UHGV virus genome: UHGV-2152145
DNA length: 10,830 nt
Strand: one strand, 5' to 3'
Origin: a virus
The notes under the pieces were generated by a model. That model made no database searches, had not been told where the DNA came from, and saw only the letters and a program-made list of their open reading frames with translations. Positions 1 to 9,458 of this stretch are shown here, piece after piece (positions within the stretch are counted from its first letter, which is position 1; every line of letters begins with the position of its first letter). Both the position numbers and the translations under genes were made by a program.

Positions 1-879
1 ATGAAAATACTGCCCGTTGTCTCCACCAAAGGTGGTGAAGGTAAATCAACACAATCCGCAAATCTTGCTGGTTTTCTGGCCGATGCAGGTATACGTACCC
101 TGCTGATTGACGGAGATCATGCTCAACCCACAGCCAGTAATATCTTTCCGCTGACATATGAAGCGCCAGCCGGCCTTTTTGAACTTCTTATGCGTACGGC
201 TGACCTCACTCATCCCGATAATATCATTTCCCGCACGGCTATCGATGGCCTTGATCTGATTGTCTCCAATGATCCTCATGAACAGTTAAAAACCGCGATG
301 CTTCACGCCCCGGACGGGCGTCTTCGCCTCCGGAATGTTCTGCAACATCCACTTTTCCTGAATAACTACGATGTCATTGTCGTTGATTCTCAGGGGGCGC
401 GCTCCGTCATGCTGGAGATGATAGTACTGTCGGCGACTGAGTCGGTTGTCGGGATGGTCAATCCGGTTCTTCCCGATGTTCGTGAATTTATTCGCGGTAC
501 TGTCAACGTCATGGAGAACCTGCTGCCCTACCGTGAACTTGGGATACCCCTGCCTAAAGTACGCACGCTGGTTAACTGCATGGACTATACCGCGCTGGCC
601 AGGAAGACGCTGGATGAGCTGGCCGGAATTATTCAGACCGGTCGTTACAGCAGACAGTTACCTGAAGGTGCCGTTTCCCTTCTTTCCACACAGATTTACG
701 ACCTGAATATTTACAAGCAGGGACATGCGGCTGGTCAACCCGTTCATCGTCTCGAAAAAGAATCCACACGTCGCAGTGATTCTGCGCTTGTCACGATGCA
801 CAGCCTGGCCTGTGAACTCTTTCCTGAGTGGAAACCGGCGTTTGACGGGCTGCTGGAAAACGGAGGAATTCGTCAGTGA
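1..879 (+). CDS. parA: ParA/Soj-family partition ATPase (deviant Walker A), complete 292 aa
   Basis: N-terminus MKILPVVSTKGGEGKSTQSANLAGFLADAGIRTLLIDGDH carries the KGGxxK[ST] deviant Walker A typical of ParA/MinD ATPases, with a hydrophobic DS (VVDSQG) Walker B-like segment further on. The ORF starts at window position 1 and stops with TGA at 877-879. Confidence 0.9.
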   Translation: MKILPVVSTKGGEGKSTQSANLAGFLADAGIRTLLIDGDHAQPTASNIFPLTYEAPAGLFELLMRTADLTHPDNIISRTAIDGLDLIVSNDPHEQLKTAMLHAPDGRLRLRNVLQHPLFLNNYDVIVVDSQGARSVMLEMIVLSATESVVGMVNPVLPDVREFIRGTVNVMENLLPYRELGIPLPKVRTLVNCMDYTALARKTLDELAGIIQTGRYSRQLPEGAVSLLSTQIYDLNIYKQGHAAGQPVHRLEKESTRRSDSALVTMHSLACELFPEWKPAFDGLLENGGIRQ

Positions 880-1008
880 TTCAGGTTAAGCGAGAACCAG
901 TCAGCTCTGTTGCTGTGGCTTATGGAGGTTATCAATACCGGAAGTCGTTATTTCATCAGTGTCATTAATTTTATCCATTTAATCAATATGATGAGAAGGA
1001 TTAACCCC

Positions 1009-1503
1009 ATGAATAACAGCAGCAATACCACAAACCGTAATACGTCTTCACCCGTTGAGTCAGCCTGTCATGCGTTACTGGATTTTATTGCCCGGGAAGT
1101 CTTTGAGAATAAAGCATCGGAAGAGGATGTCAGGGAGCGTTGCAAAGTATTTACAGCGCTGCTTAACGAAGGATTTAAAGCCCTGCTTGATGAGTCAGGG
1201 CTGAATCTGTCGAATCTTCGTAAACAGTGTAAGGAACTGGAATCTCAGATAACCAGACTGGATTCTCAGTCCGACGCTATTTGTCGCAGAAGCGCTCAAA
1301 TTGAACGCTTCATTGGCCACCATTTACCTTTTTTTGATTTGAACAAAGTTTCTGGTACTGCCAGTCAGTCATGTGAACCAGCGCCTTCTCCGGCTCAGTC
1401 GGCTGTGTCCAGTAGTCAGCCCAGTAATCTGTCAGAGCAAGGGACATCTCTGCGGGGGTCATCTGCTCAACCGTTGCCGGGAGCCAGTGATGCTGATGAA
1501 TAA
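1009..1503 (+). CDS. Hypothetical protein, predicted coiled-coil core with Ser/Pro/Gln-rich low-complexity C-terminal tail
   Basis: ATG at 1009 is preceded by GAAGGA (995-1000) at 8-nt spacing; the ORF-track start at 910 has no RBS. The central region (LRKQCKELESQITRLDSQ) looks helical/coiled-coil. The last ~190 nt overlap the minus-strand ORF 1310..1783, so the 3' portion is uncertain. Confidence 0.5.
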   Translation: MNNSSNTTNRNTSSPVESACHALLDFIAREVFENKASEEDVRERCKVFTALLNEGFKALLDESGLNLSNLRKQCKELESQITRLDSQSDAICRRSAQIERFIGHHLPFFDLNKVSGTASQSCEPAPSPAQSAVSSSQPSNLSEQGTSLRGSSAQPLPGASDADE

Positions 1504-1783
1504 GAGCAAACTTAACGGCTTGTTGAATGCTGATACTGTTATCGTCCAGAAAAAACCAGCGACGGCTGTTAATCAGCCAGTGTCCGAGCCAGCAAAGTCG
1601 GTAAGCGAGCTTCTGGTCAGCCCCGGGAAAGATTTCAGTTCCCTGGTCAAAGAAGGTTTTACAACGTTCCACATCGTCGGTGCTCATGCCTCCGGCTTTC
1701 CAGTTTTCATAATATTTTGCCATGTTGCCATCCTCATCATGGTTGTTATCAATGCCGGACGGCAGTTGTTTTTCTGTATTCAT
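1310..1783 (-). CDS. Possible divergent minus-strand ORF (157 aa) initiating inside repeat copy 1; uncertain
   Basis: The minus-strand ATG (complement of 1781-1783) is preceded by AAGGAG at ~7-nt spacing. The first 11 codons (MNTEKQLPSGI) are identical to those of minus ORF 2669..3064 because they lie within the repeat. The product is Trp/Tyr-rich and protein-like, but it overlaps the 3' end of + CDS 1009..1503, and antisense ORFs of this size are common in this window. Confidence 0.3.
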   Translation of the reverse strand: MNTEKQLPSGIDNNHDEDGNMAKYYENWKAGGMSTDDVERCKTFFDQGTEIFPGADQKLAYRLCWLGHWLINSRRWFFLDDNSISIQQAVKFALIHQHHWLPATVEQMTPAEMSLALTDYWADYWTQPTEPEKALVHMTDWQYQKLCSNQKKVNGGQ

Positions 1784-1956
1784 AAAAATTCTCCTTTAAA
1801 ACAATCTGTTATGAGTATGCGAATGCTGTCCGTACCTTCTGACCGGGGTCGGCAAACTTACCGGTCTGAAAACGTACAGGCAGTTATGGGCATTTTATGC
1901 CCTGCAACTGTTCGTCCGGCGCCCTTTTTCCTTTTTTTACACAGCCAGGTTTCCGG
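1751..1956. repeat. Copy 1 of a ~206-bp direct repeat (leader/regulatory element), upstream of CDS 2011..2913
   Basis: Aligned by eye to 3032..3237 at a constant offset of 1281 bp with no indels and roughly 16 mismatches. The central block (~1826..1920) differs at only 2 positions. Contains the palindrome GGGCATTTTATGCCC (1888..1902) and the imperfect inverted repeat TCTGACCGG-N14-CCGGTCTGA (1838..1869). Confidence 0.9.
1888..1902. promoter_or_regulatory. Perfect 15-bp palindrome GGGCATTTTATGCCC inside repeat copy 1 (identical site at 3169..3183); candidate operator or RNA hairpin
   Basis: 6-bp arms GGGCAT/ATGCCC around a TTT centre, conserved exactly in both repeat copies, followed about 20 nt later by a T-rich tract (CCCTTTTTCCTTTTTTT). 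No canonical sigma70 -35/-10 pair could be assigned confidently by eye. Confidence 0.35.
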
Positions 1957-2010
1957 TTATCTGCGGGGAAGTGACGCACCTGGCGGGCAGAGAGATATGG
2001 AGGTGAAAGT

Positions 2011-2913
2011 ATGTCTTCCTCAGTGAAATATTCTCCGGTTCCGGCGGTGTTAACCCGCCCTGAATTGCTGGCTGAACTGAACCTGCTGATGACCCGGATT
2101 GCCAGTGGGTGTCGTGTGGGGGTTCCGGCGTCATGTCGTCCGGTCATTGCGGTGCACGGTGGTTATGTTTCATACAGTTCTCCACGCGCCGGACGTGTTT
2201 TTCAGGACGGTTCCCGCCCGGAGATAGTGATGGCCGTCAGTAACCGGGAACGGATGTGCGAATGGTTCAGTCAGGTCTGGCTTCCGCTGCATCTGGCTGC
2301 CCTTGAAGGCGATGAGAGTGCTTTTTTCAGTGCGGAGGTCAACATGGTGCGCCGCGAGCTGCAGCGCGTTCCGGGGAATTCAATGAACTGCATGTGCTGG
2401 GCAAGCCTTGCTGCACTGGCATTTGATGCTGAAGAGCGGGTGGAACGGCAGAAAGGCAATAATGAGAACATCGCAACATATGATGAGAGCATCGCAACAT
2501 ATGCATTCCGTGCTGCCTGTACTGTGAGTCTCTGTCTGAGCCGGAATGTTTCCGGAGGTATTCCGCGCTCATACCCTGAATGGAAAGCGATTTTATTTCC
2601 CCGTGATGGTGCTGACATTTTCCCCGACGGGTGGCTGGAAAATATGACCCGTCGGGCTGAACGTGTCTTTACGAGTGCGAAACGTCAGTGTGGAATGCTC
2701 TCAGCCAGTCAGGCAGCGCTTTTTTCTCAACAAACACGTCAGTGTGCCAGTGAGCAATGCTCCGGCCGTATTCAGGCCGGCAGTCATCATTCAGGGAGCC
2801 ACCCTGACGTTTCAGCTTATGAAGTACGCTGTGCACAAGAAATGTCGCTTTCACCGGTCCATTCGACCCGACAGTGTTCAGTTCAATCCACTGATTCTGC
2901 TGAAACGGAGTGA
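2011..2913 (+). CDS. Hypothetical protein (300 aa), no recognisable domain; flanked on both sides by the 206-bp repeat
   Basis: ATG 2011 is preceded by GGAGGTG (1999-2005) at 5-6 nt spacing, directly downstream of repeat copy 1. Contains an in-frame 21-bp tandem duplication (2464..2505) and a Cys/Ser/Gln-rich C-terminal ~80 aa that looks low-complexity. The 3' end overlaps minus ORF 2669..3064. Confidence 0.5.
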   Translation: MSSSVKYSPVPAVLTRPELLAELNLLMTRIASGCRVGVPASCRPVIAVHGGYVSYSSPRAGRVFQDGSRPEIVMAVSNRERMCEWFSQVWLPLHLAALEGDESAFFSAEVNMVRRELQRVPGNSMNCMCWASLAALAFDAEERVERQKGNNENIATYDESIATYAFRAACTVSLCLSRNVSGGIPRSYPEWKAILFPRDGADIFPDGWLENMTRRAERVFTSAKRQCGMLSASQAALFSQQTRQCASEQCSGRIQAGSHHSGSHPDVSAYEVRCAQEMSLSPVHSTRQCSVQSTDSAETE

Positions 2914-3064
2914 AAGGATGAGCCGATTCAATACAGTTCGGGGGGAAGGGGTTACAGAGCCCGTCTTTTTCCGTCATGACCTTTCCGTTACTCAGCAGCC
3001 AGAACTGCTGGGTGTATTTCACTTCAGATCCAATGCCGGACGGCAGTTGTTTTTCTGTATTCAT
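2669..3064 (-). CDS. Possible divergent minus-strand ORF (131 aa) initiating inside repeat copy 2; uncertain
   Basis: The minus-strand ATG at 3062-3064 is preceded by AAAGGA. It shares only the first 11 residues with ORF 1310..1783 and then diverges completely. It overlaps the 3' low-complexity tail of + CDS 2011..2913. Confidence 0.25.
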   Translation of the reverse strand: MNTEKQLPSGIGSEVKYTQQFWLLSNGKVMTEKDGLCNPFPPNCIESAHPFTPFQQNQWIELNTVGSNGPVKATFLVHSVLHKLKRQGGSLNDDCRPEYGRSIAHWHTDVFVEKKALPDWLRAFHTDVSHS

Positions 3065-3237
3065 AAAGTTTTTCCTTTAAATCAGATTGTTATGAATGAG
3101 CGAATGCTGTCCGTACCTTCAGACCGGGGGCGGCAAACTTACCGGTCTGAAAACGTACAGGCAGTTATGGGCATTTTATGCCCTGCAACTGTTCGTCCGG
3201 CACCCTTTTTCCTTTTTTCACATAGCCGGGTTTCCGG
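3032..3237. repeat. Copy 2 of the ~206-bp direct repeat, immediately upstream of dnaB
   Basis: Same element as 1751..1956. Contains GGGCATTTTATGCCC (3169..3183) and the perfect 9-bp inverted repeat TCAGACCGG-N14-CCGGTCTGA (3119..3150). The dnaB RBS GGGAGG and ATG 3261 follow about 20 bp after the repeat ends. Confidence 0.9.
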
Positions 3238-3260
3238 CAGTCAGAGAGGGAGGATACACC

Positions 3261-4649
3261 ATGGCTGAACGCTATATTCCGCGCTCCGTTGATGCTGAAC
3301 AGGCTGTGCTTGGCGGCCTGATGCTTGATAATGATCGCTGGGATGAAGTGGTGCTGATGCTCAGGAGGGAGGATTTTTCTCTGGCTGTGCACAGGGTGAT
3401 ATTCCGCTCTATGTCAGAGCTGGCAGTCAGCGGTCAGCCGTTCGACCTCATCACGCTGAGTGAGCATATTGAGAAAACGCACAATATTGAGGCACTCGGC
3501 GGCTTCGCTTACCTGGCTGAGCTCAGTAAGAATACACCTTCAGCAGCCAATATCATGGCTTATGTCCGTATTGTGGCGGAAAAGAGTATGCTGCGGCAGC
3601 TTCAGGAAACCGGTAATTCTCTGGTTGCTGATGTTGCATCGCCGGATGCCACTCCGCGCGCAGTTCTTGAATCCGCGGAACGGCGACTTTTTTCTCTTTC
3701 CCAGACAGGCATGCTGCATGAGCGCAGTGAAGTGAGCCTTTCCTCCGCAATGGAGCTGGCCCTGCGTCAGCTGGAAGAAGGACTGAGGGCGGGCGGGATG
3801 ACGGGCACCCCAACGGGGTTTGATGAACTGGATGAGATGACCTGTGGCCTGCAGCCCGGGGATCTTATCCTTCTGGCAGCACGTCCGTCGATGGGGAAAA
3901 CGGCCCTTGGGCTCACTCTGTGTCTTAATGCCCTGCGTGAGCGGACCGATGAAACGGTATTCCTGTTCAGCATAGAAATGTCCAGGGAGCAACTGATTCT
4001 GCGTACCCTGTCGATGCTGTCCCGGGTGGAGCTGACTCGTCTTCGCAGCAGCATGATGGACGATGAGGAGTGGGCGAGACTTACGGCAACAATGGGTGAG
4101 TTCATGCAGGAGGGGACATCTGTCGGTGAAGGTAACCGCCTGATCATTGATGACTCGTCATTTCAGACTCCGTCATCACTGCGCGCCAGTGCCCGTCGTT
4201 ATGTGCGTCTGTATGGCAGACCTTCCCTGATAATGGTCGATTATCTCCAGTTGATTCGTTCACCGGACCAGGAAAACCGCACTCAGGAGATTGCGGAAAT
4301 ATCCCGCGCCCTCAAGTCGCTGGGGAAAGAACTTGGATGCCCTGTGCTCGCACTGTCGCAGCTTAACCGACAGGTGGAACAGCGGGCAGATAAACGACCA
4401 AACAACGGTGACCTGCGTGATTCCGGGGCGCTGGAGCAGGATGCTGACCTCATTATGTTTATTTACCGTGACGAGGTTTACAACCCCGGCACTCTGGATA
4501 AGGGCGTGGCGGAAATCATTGTGAGCAAACAGCGACAGGGACCGACCGGTACGATACGGGTGAGCTTCGATGGTCGTTACACCCTGTTTTCACCGTTTGA
4601 ACGTGGCTGGAATTTTGACCGTTCCGGAGGCAATGCGTATGTCAATTAA
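3261..4649 (+). CDS. dnaB: DnaB-family replicative DNA helicase (463 aa)
   Basis: N-terminus MAERYIPRSVDAEQAVLGGLMLDN is a typical DnaB N-terminal domain start. Walker A ARPSMGKTALGL, Walker B-like LIMVDYLQL, and SQLNR plus DLRDSGALEQDADLIMFIYRDEVY match the RecA-like DnaB C-terminal domain. The start is set at ATG 3261 with GGGAGG at 3248-3253; the ORF-track start at 3096 lies inside the repeat and lacks an RBS. Confidence 0.9.
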   Translation: MAERYIPRSVDAEQAVLGGLMLDNDRWDEVVLMLRREDFSLAVHRVIFRSMSELAVSGQPFDLITLSEHIEKTHNIEALGGFAYLAELSKNTPSAANIMAYVRIVAEKSMLRQLQETGNSLVADVASPDATPRAVLESAERRLFSLSQTGMLHERSEVSLSSAMELALRQLEEGLRAGGMTGTPTGFDELDEMTCGLQPGDLILLAARPSMGKTALGLTLCLNALRERTDETVFLFSIEMSREQLILRTLSMLSRVELTRLRSSMMDDEEWARLTATMGEFMQEGTSVGEGNRLIIDDSSFQTPSSLRASARRYVRLYGRPSLIMVDYLQLIRSPDQENRTQEIAEISRALKSLGKELGCPVLALSQLNRQVEQRADKRPNNGDLRDSGALEQDADLIMFIYRDEVYNPGTLDKGVAEIIVSKQRQGPTGTIRVSFDGRYTLFSPFERGWNFDRSGGNAYVN

Positions 4650-6264
4650 GCGAAATCATTCCCTTGACCTGGGGGCCGCCATCATGCAACCGGGGCGCCA
4701 GGCCAGTAAGACCGGTAACGTGGTTGCCCTGGGGGAAACGCCCATGGTTCTGACGCTGGATCAGTTGCGCCCTAATCCTGATAACCCGAGAACCACGCGC
4801 AATCCCCGGTACGACGATATTAAAAGTTCAATTTTCTCCCGCGGACTGGATACGGTGCCAAAGGTCACCCGGATACCGGAGAGTGAGCCGGATATCTACA
4901 TCTTCAGCGATGGTGGTAACACTCGTTATCAGATCCTGAGAGAACTGTGGGAGGAGACCGGCGAGCAGCGTTTCTACCGTATTCATGTGCTTTTCAAACC
5001 GTGGCCGGGGCGGCTTCAGTGTGTCATTGGTCATCTGGCTGAGAATGAAGTCAGGGGCGAACTGACGTTTATTGAAAAGGCTCAGGGTATCCATAAAGCA
5101 CGGATGATTTATGAAGAGTCCCTGCAGCGGACTGTGACGATCAGAGAACTGGCATCATTACTGACAGATGAAGGCCTTCCGGTAAGCCACTCATCCGTCA
5201 GCAGGATGGAGCATGCGCTGAAATATCTGTATCCGTGGATCCCCGAACTACTGGAGTCAGGAATGGGGAGACCGCAGGTCAATTCTTTGTTATCTCTCCG
5301 TCAGGATGCGGAACGCATCTGGGGGCAGTTTGCAGTCGCGGCGGAAAACGATGTGGATTTTGATCGCGTGTTTGGTGAATGTTGCGGCAAATTCAACTCG
5401 CCGGAACTCTGGTCCATGGAAATGTTCAGGGACGAGCTGATCGGTGACCTGCTGAAGGCTCTGCCACATCCGGTACTGGATTACGATCGCTGGTTGCTGG
5501 AGCTGGATCCCCGGGAGCGTAATCGACGTCACCATTTTGGTGAACCCGAACCGGTACTCATGCCGGCGGGCAGCCCCCCGGAACCGGGGGCTCAGGTGGC
5601 GTCTGGCGGGATGACGGAAGCTGCTCAGGTCGTTGCCGCCACTCCCGCAGACCGTGAGAGCGTCATGAATACTGCGCAATCAGGGGCTGAGAAAGAGGAC
5701 CGCCCGGTCGCAGATAAACGCGAACGACGCAGAAAGGAAGTTCAACCGGATATGTATGGTGGCGAAGACTCATACAGCGGTGATTGCGGAGAGGATGCGA
5801 CCGGTGAGTCAACTGATATACCGATAATGCCGGAAGATAACGCCATGCAGGAGGGGGGAGAATTTCGCCTGGCGTCTGCATTCACTGGTGCTGAACAGGA
5901 TGATATCGAATCTCTGCAGAATGAGGCGTTTCACCTCGCATGGGAGCTGGCGTCACATACAGGCTGTGTCGATGAGATAGCGATGGACCGGGAAAGTGAG
6001 CTGTCTGCAGGATTTGGTGCGGCAGAGGCAAATTGCTCACCGGTCATGGCATTTCTTGTCAGACTGACCGGTGAGGAGGTTCTGCGGGTCAATCCGGTTT
6101 CCCTTGATGCACTGCTGATAGGCGGCAGTACTGAAGAAGACCTGCCGTTGCTTGATGATGAACATGCAGGAAAGTTGCTTCGCCTGCTGGGTGTGTTGCG
6201 TCGTCTGCGGGGGCTGCAGCGTATGGTGGAAGACGAGAGTGAGGAAGGGCGCGATGAATGCTGA
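4639..6264 (+). CDS. parB: ParB-like nuclease-domain protein with long acidic low-complexity C-terminal extension
   Basis: LDQLRPNPDNPR and GNTRYQ match the ParB/Srx N-terminal domain signature (xPNPxNPR box, GxxR). ATG 4639 has GGAGG at 4626-4630 with 8-nt spacing and overlaps the dnaB stop by 11 nt, consistent with translational coupling. The C-terminal ~230 aa are rich in E/D/P/G/A. Confidence 0.8.
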   Translation: MSIKRNHSLDLGAAIMQPGRQASKTGNVVALGETPMVLTLDQLRPNPDNPRTTRNPRYDDIKSSIFSRGLDTVPKVTRIPESEPDIYIFSDGGNTRYQILRELWEETGEQRFYRIHVLFKPWPGRLQCVIGHLAENEVRGELTFIEKAQGIHKARMIYEESLQRTVTIRELASLLTDEGLPVSHSSVSRMEHALKYLYPWIPELLESGMGRPQVNSLLSLRQDAERIWGQFAVAAENDVDFDRVFGECCGKFNSPELWSMEMFRDELIGDLLKALPHPVLDYDRWLLELDPRERNRRHHFGEPEPVLMPAGSPPEPGAQVASGGMTEAAQVVAATPADRESVMNTAQSGAEKEDRPVADKRERRRKEVQPDMYGGEDSYSGDCGEDATGESTDIPIMPEDNAMQEGGEFRLASAFTGAEQDDIESLQNEAFHLAWELASHTGCVDEIAMDRESELSAGFGAAEANCSPVMAFLVRLTGEEVLRVNPVSLDALLIGGSTEEDLPLLDDEHAGKLLRLLGVLRRLRGLQRMVEDESEEGRDEC

Positions 6265-6985
6265 TGCCGCACGTCAGGATCAACTGATTAAACGGATAAG
6301 AAAACTGCTGGCGCTGAGCCGGAATAACAGTAACCCCCATGAGGCAGGCCAGGCACTTTCCCGTGCTCAGGCGCTGATGCGCAAGCACGGTATCACTGAA
6401 CTGGATACTGATATTTCGGTGATAAAGACCTCGTCATCAAAGGGGGCCCCGTCAGAAGCGGAAAAAGTTCCGGTATGGATGGGGCGCCTTATGCATGTTG
6501 TTGCAGAGGCATTCGGATGCCATACATACCTGGACTGGCGTATCACAACCGGAAGGTACTGGCGGCGGGTTGTCATATTTTATGGCTTTGGGGAGCGCCC
6601 GGTTGTGGCGGCGTATGCCTTTGATGTTCTCTGCCGGCAGATGCAAAAGGCAACAAAGGCGTATCTTTCAACCCAGAGCAGGGCATTAAAATTGTCAACC
6701 CGCAGGGCAAGAGCAGCCATGTTTCGTGACGGCTGGGTTTATGGGGTGCGTGATGTGGTGGATGCATTCCCGCTCACGGAAGATGAGACGCGTGTAATGA
6801 AGACGTGGCTGAAGAGACAGCAATTTGAGGGAATGGCTGCCTTCCGGAATGTTAAGGACTGTAATGGTGGTGATCGTGCACGCTGGCAGGGATACAGCGA
6901 GGGTAAAAAGGCAACACTGCATCATGGTGTTGGTTCCCGGAATCTGAGACCTGAAAGCCTGATATCGGGCGGAGGTGAGGTATGA
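6254..6985 (+). CDS. DUF2786-like protein (conserved hypothetical of plasmids/phages/islands)
   Basis: N-terminus MNADAARQDQLIKRIRKLLALSRNNSNPHEAGQALSRAQALMRKHGITELD fits my recollection of the DUF2786 N-terminal helical motif (IxKIrKLLALaxsxNxxEAxxAL). Start 6254 follows GAGGAAGGG and overlaps the parB stop by 11 nt. Confidence 0.65.
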   Translation: MNADAARQDQLIKRIRKLLALSRNNSNPHEAGQALSRAQALMRKHGITELDTDISVIKTSSSKGAPSEAEKVPVWMGRLMHVVAEAFGCHTYLDWRITTGRYWRRVVIFYGFGERPVVAAYAFDVLCRQMQKATKAYLSTQSRALKLSTRRARAAMFRDGWVYGVRDVVDAFPLTEDETRVMKTWLKRQQFEGMAAFRNVKDCNGGDRARWQGYSEGKKATLHHGVGSRNLRPESLISGGGEV

Positions 6986-7814: not shown

Positions 7815-8072
7815 ATGAGTAATGCAGCAAGACTCCAGCTGGGTTTTTCTCCGTTTTCAAAAACTATCGTGCTGGCAAAAATGCGTAATCTTGACGACGG
7901 AACCAGTCTTCGTGTCGGTAATGATCCCGGCCGCGATGTAACCAATGAGGCGGCTCAGCTTGTCTGGCATCTGGTCATGGCAGAAGGTGGTGAAATTATG
8001 TGGGAAATGGACGATGGCTCCCGCATGGTGCTGAAGGCTGAAAGTCAGGAGGCAACCAGTGAGCAAGATTAA
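7815..8072 (+). CDS. Small acidic hypothetical protein (85 aa)
   Basis: ATG 7815 is preceded by GAGGTGG (7803-7809). No HTH or other recognisable motif. The 3' end overlaps the next gene start by 14 nt. Confidence 0.5.
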   Translation: MSNAARLQLGFSPFSKTIVLAKMRNLDDGTSLRVGNDPGRDVTNEAAQLVWHLVMAEGGEIMWEMDDGSRMVLKAESQEATSEQD

Positions 8073-8727
8073 CTACCAGGCACTGCGTGAGGCGGCAGAG
8101 CAGGCAATGCATGACGACTGGGGATTTGACACGGATCTTTTCCATGAGCTGGTAACACCATCGATTGTGCAGGCACTGCTGGATGAACGGGAAGCCAAAA
8201 GCAAACTCCTGGCCGAACTGGACGCTAATTTATCCGAACTGGAGGCTGTTTTATCGGCGATGGGCGAAGAGCTCCAGAAAGCGACTGAGTCAATTGAGCG
8301 GGCTGATGCGGCTGCTACGTTGGCACACGAGACGTTTTCGGCGCTGGCGGCGGAGAATGCGATACTGAAGACAGCACTTCCTCAACCATTCGGACCTGAA
8401 ATGATGAAGGCTCTTGATGCGTATGAGAAGCACCAGGATGAAGTACCAGAGGCAGGAATGCTCAATGCATTTTTCATCTTACGCGACAGCATCTGTGTTG
8501 AAACCCCAGCCACCGATGCTTTCCTGGCTGAAGTACGGGCGCAGGGGGGGGATGCTGCTATAGAAGCTGCAAAAAATCTGGTGGCTCAGGAATATGAGTA
8601 TAAGGATTTCAAAGCGGCGCAGAGTGATTGCTGTATGTTTCCTGGTTCAGACTTGGTAGGGAAGGTTGAAATGACCGAGTGGTTAGTTGACTTTGCCGCA
8701 GAGCTTCGCAAAGGAGGCAACCAGTGA
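8059..8727 (+). CDS. Hypothetical coiled-coil protein (222 aa); shares its RBS and first ~12 codons with the next gene
   Basis: GTG 8059 is preceded by AGGAGG (8047-8052). The N-terminus MSKINYQALREAAEQA is near-identical to the start of 8724..9458; from memory this resembles ead/Ea22-like prophage proteins. The central region is helical/coiled-coil in character. Confidence 0.6.
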   Translation: MSKINYQALREAAEQAMHDDWGFDTDLFHELVTPSIVQALLDEREAKSKLLAELDANLSELEAVLSAMGEELQKATESIERADAAATLAHETFSALAAENAILKTALPQPFGPEMMKALDAYEKHQDEVPEAGMLNAFFILRDSICVETPATDAFLAEVRAQGGDAAIEAAKNLVAQEYEYKDFKAAQSDCCMFPGSDLVGKVEMTEWLVDFAAELRKGGNQ

Positions 8728-9458
8728 ACAAGATTGACTATCAGGCACTGCGTAAGGCAGCACAAAACTATCAGTCGACGCTGGCGTGGTATCAGTCCAT
8801 CCCGGACAGCCCAAATGCTGAACGGGATTGTGATGCGGCTCTGGCTGCGTTTAAGCATCACATCCGTCATCGGGAAGTGGATATTATCTCCGGGCTGTTG
8901 GATGAGCTGGACGAAAAACAGCAATACATTAAATCCCGCGACCAGGAGAATGAGGATATTGCTCTTACGGTTGGGAAGCTGAGAGTTGAGCTTGAGGAAG
9001 TAAAACAACACGCTGAAGAATTATCCGAAACCAACGCTGTTCGTAACCAATGGCGGCCAGATATTTGCCCAATAACCGGACGTGCATTTTTCATGTGGAT
9101 TGAGCATCCGACATTGGGAAATGTGCCGACGTATGGTGGCCCATTAGACAGTTACACCATTCCAACAAAGGACGGTGACGGTGAGTTTTCATGTGAGCGT
9201 TACGATCATGATTTCGGCGGTTGGGTAGAAAGCGAATGTCCTGGGTTATATCTGATTGATGATAAAGAACAATGCAGAGTCTACGAACTGGAGGAACGAG
9301 TTAAGGAACTGGATGCTCGGGAAATATCGCTCCCGGAACGTAGCAGTATGCTTCATCGAACAGATTTTAACGAGGCTTACCACACGGTAATGGCATACAA
9401 AGTTTCTGAAGTCATCGCTGCAATCCGCGTCGCTGGCATTCGCATCAAAGGAGAGTGA
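8724..9458 (+). CDS. Hypothetical protein (244 aa), mosaic: head shared with 8059..8727, tail shared with 10391..10606
   Basis: GTG 8724 is preceded by AAGGAGG (8711-8717). N-terminus MNKIDYQALRKAA; C-terminus ...AAIRVAGIRIKGE matches the C-terminus ...CTAAGIRIKGEQVK of 10391..10606. Overlaps the upstream stop by 4 nt. Confidence 0.6.
   Translation: MNKIDYQALRKAAQNYQSTLAWYQSIPDSPNAERDCDAALAAFKHHIRHREVDIISGLLDELDEKQQYIKSRDQENEDIALTVGKLRVELEEVKQHAEELSETNAVRNQWRPDICPITGRAFFMWIEHPTLGNVPTYGGPLDSYTIPTKDGDGEFSCERYDHDFGGWVESECPGLYLIDDKEQCRVYELEERVKELDAREISLPERSSMLHRTDFNEAYHTVMAYKVSEVIAAIRVAGIRIKGE

Follow-up and report, generated by a model that had tools for sequence, protein, structure and literature searches.

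A variable parA-dnaB interval in SPI-7-type integrative conjugative elements, with accessory gene units that each carry a structured repeat

Islands of the SPI-7/ICEclc type spread virulence and resistance traits in Enterobacterales and Pseudomonas. In ICEclc, an integrative conjugative element (ICE), parA is followed by shi, a 258-bp gene that overlaps both parA and parB, while SPI-7 is reported in the same paper to be without a shi homolog (PMC6812849). The ParB-like BisD of ICEclc loads at palindromes termed bisS (PMC12409273). In these two papers and a review (PMC6812849, PMC12409273, PMC5812530), a repeated structured element or an array of gene units is not described for the parA-dnaB interval. 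The current study concerns such an interval within a stretch of 10,830 nt, listed as UHGV virus genome UHGV-2152145 and referred to here as the window. Its helicase scores 682.4 bits against NCBIfam NF040583 (dnaB_SPI-7_type; curated cutoff 655), its ParB scores 377.6 bits against the ICE-type model TIGR03764 (ICE_PFGI_1 ParB; cutoff 143.75), and its Pfam matches comprise a ParA-type protein upstream as well as DUF2786/DUF7168 and DUF2857 downstream. The helicase, the ParB and the two downstream domain matches together argue for an SPI-7-type ICE and, judged by gene content, the window is the parA end of such an element. In all related loci, the first gene of the module is annotated as a ParA family protein, and among the E. 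coli relatives the parA-dnaB module lies at island borders, adjoining cadC/tRNA or an integrase. The ICE integrase, the GI-type T4SS and the relaxase lie outside the 10.8-kb window; in the related locus L089, a full ICE gene set follows downstream (integrase, STY4528/STY4534 replication proteins, topoisomerase III, SSB, PilL and TIGR03759 ICE proteins). The features of the interval are as follows.

parA, 1..879, + strand: ICE-type Walker ATPase that bounds the variable interval on the left (Pfam AAA_31/CbiA/ParA matches).
ORF1009, 1009..1503, + strand: the + gene of unit 1, 54% identical by tblastn to a 498-nt gene of related arrays; its tail (1310-1503) is antisense to M1.
M1, 1310..1783, - strand: 157 aa, divergent from the + genes, with its start codon and first 11 codons inside R_A (homologs; PGAP annotation in L005 and L127).
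R_A, 1726..2005, + strand: upstream copy of the structured repeat R, core at 1748-1942, consisting of a closing stem, three hairpins and then a U-rich tract (MFE -68 kcal/mol, folding z-score -4.85).
X, 2011..2913, + strand: the coding sequence formerly called an orphan, 300 aa, with a core of aa 1 to ~228 (2011 to ~2700) and a tail (~2700-2913) that is unselected in the X frame (alignment, codon-position counts).
Tandem duplication in X, 2459..2500, + strand: 21 nt, encoding the two 7-aa copies NENIATY/DESIATY, one of which is missing in homolog P0007.
M2, 2669..3064, - strand: 131 aa, starting inside R_B and overlapping the X tail (59% aa identity to the distant metagenome locus L091).
R_B, 3011..3285, + strand: dnaB-proximal copy of R, core at 3029-3223, with a U-rich tract predicted to pair with the dnaB Shine-Dalgarno region (folding z-score -5.73).
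dnaB-PI, 3261..4649, + strand: SPI-7-type island replicative helicase, the right anchor of the variable interval (NF040583).

This module shares its markers (ICE-type ParA, dnaB_SPI-7_type, ICE_PFGI_1 ParB, DUF2786 and DUF2857) with the parA-shi-parB (bisD) module of the ICEclc/PAPI-1/SPI-7 family. A further parallel is the small accessory gene placed after parA, sometimes overlapping the parA stop codon, which is shi in ICEclc (PMC6812849) and X in the related loci L091 and L092. However, X (231-300 aa across its family) is not homologous to Shi, the product of a 258-bp gene. On inspection, R bears no resemblance to the bisS palindromes of ICEclc (PMC12409273), a candidate identity that was rejected.

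The one long direct repeat of the window, at 1750-1971 and 3031-3252, consists of two 222-nt copies that are 90% identical and separated by 1281 nt from start to start. They flank the coding sequence at 2011-2913, just as an earlier note on this DNA had claimed. Comparison with other loci defines R as a ~195-nt conserved element plus ~45 nt of trailing sequence. A minus-strand ORF begins in both copies, which hold its 'CAT' start codon, its ribosome-binding site and its first 11 codons (MNTEKQLPSGI), and R ends 20-60 nt 5' of the start codon of a + gene, which may be X, the 498-nt gene or dnaB. A unit of the array comprises a + gene (ORF1009 or X), a convergent minus gene (M1 or M2) overlapping its 3' end, and one R. 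The 1281-bp segment is one such unit, made up of X, M2 and one R, and the minus ORF at 2669-3064 indeed overlaps the 3' end of the 300-aa ORF at 2011-2913. The earlier note had raised insertion or duplication of a leader-plus-gene unit as a possible origin of the arrangement, a wording that needs correction, since R is neither a plain leader nor a simple duplicated promoter; it is a conserved three-way-junction structure shared with the start of a divergent gene. Elsewhere in the window, a second direct repeat (8047-8097 and 8712-8762; 51 nt, 90% identity) coincides with the starts of the neighbouring genes 8059-8727 and 8724-9458, whose proteins have an N-terminal region in common (25% identity over 100 aa), so that a pair of tandem paralogs is probable.

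On the + strand, R folds into a three-way junction, in which a closing stem of 16-17 bp (1753-1768 with 1907-1923) surrounds three hairpins. RNAalifold recovered 46 pairs from 17 R copies, 12 of which show compensatory changes. Among 70 copies (57 distinct), standard pairing is kept in 98.1% of cells, as opposed to ~35% in slid controls, and 14 pairs have changed on both sides among the 57 distinct copies, versus 4.8 in shuffles (0/500 reach 14), although the underlying covariation alignment was fitted to the structure model and is biased towards structure. G·U combinations occupy 274 cells on the + strand versus 14 for A·C, with three positions being near-fixed G·U, an excess which argues for selection of the fold on the strand that is sense for X and dnaB. 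Based upon this comparative evidence, R is a conserved structure under + strand selection. It combines the features expected of a structured cis-regulatory RNA leader, namely a conserved fold, compensatory changes, sense-strand orientation and a location 5' of a coding start. Searches of 800-3500 on both strands with the Rfam 15 covariance models gave no match at E<=1, a sigma-70 promoter scan detected no promoter-like site inside R on either strand, and a terminator scan returned a single terminator-like hairpin (2989-3014), which is within chance expectation. A Rho-independent terminator or attenuator would show a GC-rich stem with a U run directly behind it. The closing stem ends in ...CGUCCGGCA, followed by CCC and then UUUUUCCUUUUUU; what this stem encloses is a junction of 170 nt, the U run begins at a distance of 3-4 nt, and the terminator scan did not flag the arrangement. 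Pairing of the U-rich tract with a Shine-Dalgarno sequence is predicted for the dnaB-type copies only and not for the X copy. Translation of the divergent M gene starts within hairpin 1, which includes both its ribosome-binding site and its start codon. The apical loop of hairpin 2 (1841-1866 / 3122-3147) contains an unpaired 14-nt motif, RGRGNNGNNRAAAC, which is kept from E. coli to Proteus, Edwardsiella and Buttiauxella. Its conservation in spite of being unpaired suggests sequence-specific recognition by a protein or another RNA.

Regarding the gene between the repeats, its variable sites relative to the distant metagenome locus L091 are distributed 68/56/104 by codon position and, by this measure, X is a real protein with a conserved core of ~228 aa. 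As stated in the earlier note, X contains no recognisable domain: it has no match in Pfam, NCBIfam or PHROGs, and its core (aa 1 to ~228) has no fold match either. It is no longer an orphan, as it belongs to a small family (231-300 aa) encoded between parA and dnaB, whose core falls into just 16 clusters at 50% identity in a set of 1.84 billion proteins and some members of which occur in islands without any repeat. Homologs are also syntenic in parA-dnaB intervals that lack repeats or have a repeat on one side only. As for the Cys/Ser/Gln-rich tail that had been singled out as unusual, variable sites within the overlap at 2669-2913 peak at M2 codon position 3 (33 vs 22 and 18), X codon position 3 is the least variable among E. 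coli variants (3 sites vs 12 and 10), and the DNA compared with L091 is 62% identical in the M2 frame versus 44% in the X tail. Given this reversal of codon positions, the absence of the tail from homologs of 231-241 aa, and its pLDDT of ~35 in the predicted structure, the tail represents read-through that is not under selection and lies antisense to M2. Since homolog P0007 has a single copy of the 21-nt duplication, the latter is a small within-gene slippage polymorphism. In the metagenome island L099 (6243-6898), a deletion fuses X codon 77 to dnaB codon 312, leaving a decayed copy of the array.

The minus-strand ORFs that start inside R (M1 and M2) are likewise real genes according to their patterns of substitution and conservation. 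M1 homologs of 142-165 aa are found in E. coli, Salmonella, Proteus and Buttiauxella, with their starts always inside R; in Proteus and Buttiauxella, M1 is a single gene divergent from dnaB-PI. M2 always accompanies the 3' side of X, and the variable sites of 2669-3030 peak at its codon position 3. ORF1009 follows its own frame in 1009-1309, where variable sites number 33/21/48 by codon position. Its Ser/Gln/Pro-rich tail, however, is by the same measure unselected read-through antisense to M1, comparable to the X tail and M2, because the variable sites of the ORF1009/M1 overlap follow the M1 frame (9/8/26). Apart from the 11 residues encoded in R, no homology was detected between M1 and M2 or between ORF1009 and X. 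Neither these M genes and ORF1009 nor the 261-nt and 498-nt genes of related loci match Pfam, NCBIfam or PHROGs. The window does not contain the 261-nt gene. In many E. coli relatives (L003 2705-2965, also L004, L005, L100, L103 and L123) this gene overlaps parA at its stop codon, and it matches shi of ICEclc (258 bp) in size and position. Truncated M genes are common next to an intact copy of R (L001, L003, L006, L040, L094). RefSeq contains + strand 'hypothetical proteins' that run through R and the M1 antisense strand with M1 itself uncalled (L002 3507-4019, L004 2584-3123, L090 7743-8282), and such calls probably represent a systematic mis-annotation in these islands. The annotation is corrected here: M1 and M2 had been missed in favor of + ORFs with odd low-complexity tails or + ORFs passing through R. 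Candidate roles for X, M1 and M2 lie in establishment or in interaction with the host.

As to its distribution, R occupies 220 places in 139 of the 5,426 complete E. coli genomes searched, with a median of 1 and a maximum of 6 per genome, whereas X occurs in 56 of the 5,426. R lies directly 5' of dnaB-PI in E. coli, Salmonella, Edwardsiella, Proteus and Buttiauxella according to profile and covariance-model searches, which also identified it in 31 metagenome contigs, although copy-number frequencies among the metagenome loci are biased, as these were chosen by the R pattern. The covariance model R1 retrieved from 60 dnaB-PI loci of other genera only the three copies already known (Edwardsiella, Proteus and Buttiauxella); R is therefore not universal in the family. 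No match was obtained by blastn against 72,556 plasmids, Frpo-bearing plasmids included, and within 40 kb of the L089 island R is confined to the parA-dnaB interval. In the sequences searched, R is thus limited to a single interval of a single ICE family. The number of copies in that interval ranges from 0 to 3, in the following layouts.

0 R: parA-X-dnaB, with overlapping stops and starts (Erwinia L092/L093).
1 R: parA-R-X-dnaB (Salmonella L094/L102).
1 R: parA-X-M2<-R->dnaB (L091).
1 R: parA-...-M1<-R->dnaB (Proteus, Buttiauxella, E. coli L002/L101/L106).
1 R: parA-261-nt gene-R-dnaB (L003, L100, L103).
2 R: two copies flanking X and M2 (the window, L001, L006, L110, L112, L123).
2 R: two copies flanking the 498-nt gene and M1 (L117, L114, L104).
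3 R: both units (L005, L090, L004).

L045 has a single copy of R as well. The variable presence of X that the earlier note had predicted among related elements is evident from these counts. Its own counter-scenario, in which the gene would be universal, with two repeats and no single-copy variants, is clearly contradicted by the numbers of genomes with R (139) and with X (56) and by the median of one R per genome. The layout predicted to result from deletion, parA-ORF1009-M1<-R->dnaB, exists in L002, L101 and L106. Loci of the L002 type correspond exactly to the product expected from recombination between R_A and R_B of the window, but at ~90% identity, and a precise deletion derivative of the window's own element was not found, as relatives that are at least 95% identical all keep the X unit. 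The proposal that the repeats are the borders of a variable cassette is supported, with the qualification that X also occurs without a repeat or with one on a single side, so that the repeats do not define its presence.

The exchange of units is clearest within one backbone lineage, in which all four combinations of the two unit types occur between flanking genes that are 98-99% identical. For example, dnaB is 99.3% identical both between L005 (both units) and L104 (498-nt unit only) and between L004 (both units) and L100 (no unit), and the upstream M gene (M1p) is 99.3% identical between L112/L110 (X unit only) and L005/L090 (both units). Mosaic haplotypes are present among the R copies. The single R of L100 is chimeric: it resembles the first copy of L004 in its left flank, the second in its core and the third at its right end. 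Over 1350-6400, the window matches L001 at ~99% identity; only inside R_B does this value fall to 75-90%. In hairpin 3, the right half of R_B has the haplotype of the window's own R_A, which sets it apart from every other dnaB-proximal copy. This R_A-type hairpin 3 and the local drop in identity versus L001 indicate, at the level of haplotypes, gene conversion between the two copies. Truncated copies of R break at different internal points (model position ~47 in L004, 59-67 in L008, and the last 36 nt only in L007), which favors homologous or illegitimate recombination over a site-specific system. The exact architecture and gene order of the window was not found in the 5,426 E. coli genomes, with the best coverage being 82%. 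The ORF1009 region (~900-1350) is absent from L001 and matches L002-type islands at ~90-98%; by alignment, the window appears to be mosaic, its left part being of the L002 type and its right part of the L001 type. As shown by these comparative data, R-bounded units are gained, lost and reshuffled by homologous recombination and gene conversion between R copies. The parA-helicase interval thereby offers an example of ICE backbones swapping accessory genes without a dedicated recombinase.

Based upon these features, we consider it probable that the locus as a whole is a modular parA-dnaB array that recombines at R, with R acting as a + strand RNA leader. R would be part of a read-through transcript from parA to dnaB, originating at parA or in the preceding unit, and would act in cis to set the expression of the gene behind it. 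Several observations argue for this placement: 1) the fold belongs to the sense strand and has conserved G·U pairs, 2) the position of the 5' arm near the left edge of R, together with at least five left-flank contexts, leaves no dedicated promoter, 3) the distance to the next start codon is short and fixed, and 4) pairing between the U-rich tract and the Shine-Dalgarno sequence is predicted in dnaB-type copies. At the dnaB copy, the U-rich tract is predicted to sequester the Shine-Dalgarno sequence. Since the sequence of hairpin 1 is complementary to the start codon and ribosome-binding site of M, the R RNA would be antisense to the M translation start, and M expression might be inversely coupled to the + operon. 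X, in turn, can also occupy a translationally coupled position between parA and dnaB. As another identity for R, we considered an sRNA gene driven by a promoter of its own, which is unlikely, as the 5' arm lies 5-10 nt from the left edge of R and the left flank differs among five contexts. Counted against the leader function are the lack of a detected promoter, the existence of SPI-7-type islands that work without R, and the lack of predicted Shine-Dalgarno sequestration at the X copy.

The most serious alternative is that R functions as folded + strand ssDNA while the excised island is transferred by conjugation or replicates as a rolling circle, serving as a single-strand origin, a priming site or an Frpo-like ssDNA promoter with M1 and M2 as early genes. 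A + strand ssDNA function would account for the strand asymmetry equally well as an RNA leader does, and a strand-specific, multi-branched structure of ~175 nt is reminiscent of ssoA or G4-type ssi elements. R is also located beside the island's own replicative helicase gene at the island end, the + strand is the template for M1 and M2 only, both of which start in R, and the unconserved left flank of R provides no apparent dedicated promoter for an RNA containing the 5' arm. Moreover, multi-copy ssDNA promoters are found in plasmid leading regions, and these Frpo/ssi elements resemble R as repeated, strongly folding intergenic elements of ~200-300 nt near the end of a conjugative element and upstream of uncharacterised genes (PMC11541004). 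Despite these parallels, Frpo/ssi promoters are recognized by -35/-10 hexamers in the stem and by a fold on the template strand, whereas the stems of R are without -35/-10-like hexamers in both the scan and on inspection, and its fold is on the sense strand of X/dnaB, though this is the template strand for M1/M2. By blastn, R shares no sequence similarity with the plasmids searched, and it forms a three-way junction as opposed to a single long hairpin. In addition, near-fixed G·U pairs are typical of RNA, while the equivalent G·T pairs are destabilising in DNA, R is held tightly 20-60 nt 5' of a + gene start, and the M genes are often truncated next to an intact R. A literature search for the oriT position or the transferred strand of the SPI-7-type ICE family yielded nothing usable. 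On balance, we regard the ssDNA role as unlikely. Were R to act in this way, it might provide an origin or promoter active in the recipient ahead of second-strand synthesis.

A much weaker candidate would be an integron-like cassette system, with R as an attC-like folded site cut at a fixed point by a dedicated recombinase. The resemblance lies in units that are separated by a repeated, imperfect inverted-repeat element folding as a single strand, and that occur as 1-3 units in variable combinations. Integrons are defined by an adjacent IntI-type integrase with an attI site and by recombination at one fixed point. However, no integron integrase was found in the window or in the related loci examined, where the neighbouring genes encode ParA and P4-type island integrases, and the truncated (L004, L008, L007) and chimeric copies of R break at differing positions, with exchange tracts of varying extent that resemble gene conversion. 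The attC sites of integrons are 57-141 bp in length, whereas R is at least 195 nt, contains the start of a divergent gene, and lies upstream, not downstream, of its + gene. Such a system is therefore highly improbable here. Equally hard to credit is a neutral accident, in which a single tandem duplication of the M-dnaB intergenic region left a functionless second copy and variable presence merely tracks the vertical divergence of island lineages; the single-copy state is indeed the commonest (median 1) and the M1<-R->dnaB layout of Proteus, Buttiauxella and Edwardsiella looks ancestral, yet the upstream copies retain the complete fold and show compensatory changes, just as the dnaB copy does, the two unit types occur in four combinations on ~99% identical backbones, R copies are chimeric or converted, and Salmonella keeps R only upstream of X.

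Returning to the modular array with R as a probable + strand RNA leader, a broader proposal can be attached to it tentatively, and we would give it only somewhat more credence than a purely ssDNA role. R may represent a previously undescribed class of structured nucleic acid of SPI-7-type ICEs with a dual role, namely that of a + strand RNA or ssDNA control element at the junction of the M gene and the replication operon, and that of a built-in recombination scaffold of an integrase-free cassette array. If so, these islands would swap accessory genes beside their replication genes. In any case, R is a new candidate for a structured RNA or ssDNA motif; it covaries strongly and is situated where the island genes for replication, partition and activation begin.

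Among the described repeats, REP/BIME and ERIC sequences are imperfect palindromes in polycistronic mRNAs that are present in several copies and are able to affect mRNA fate as well as serve as recombination substrates. R is similarly a multi-copy imperfect palindrome and a recombination substrate, but it is restricted to one interval of one ICE family, and it is longer, branched and overlaps a gene start. The variable-region hotspots of ICEs, such as those of the SXT/R391 family, occupy fixed intergenic positions of the backbone, at which the accessory genes differ between otherwise similar elements. The parA-dnaB interval is comparable in being a fixed position with differing accessory genes. 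Unlike in those hotspots, each unit here brings its own copy of one and the same structured element of 200 nt, and the array thereby has its own recombination substrates, such that precise removal is possible. We view the array as an accessory-gene hotspot of ICEs in which every unit includes one copy of a structured element not described before.
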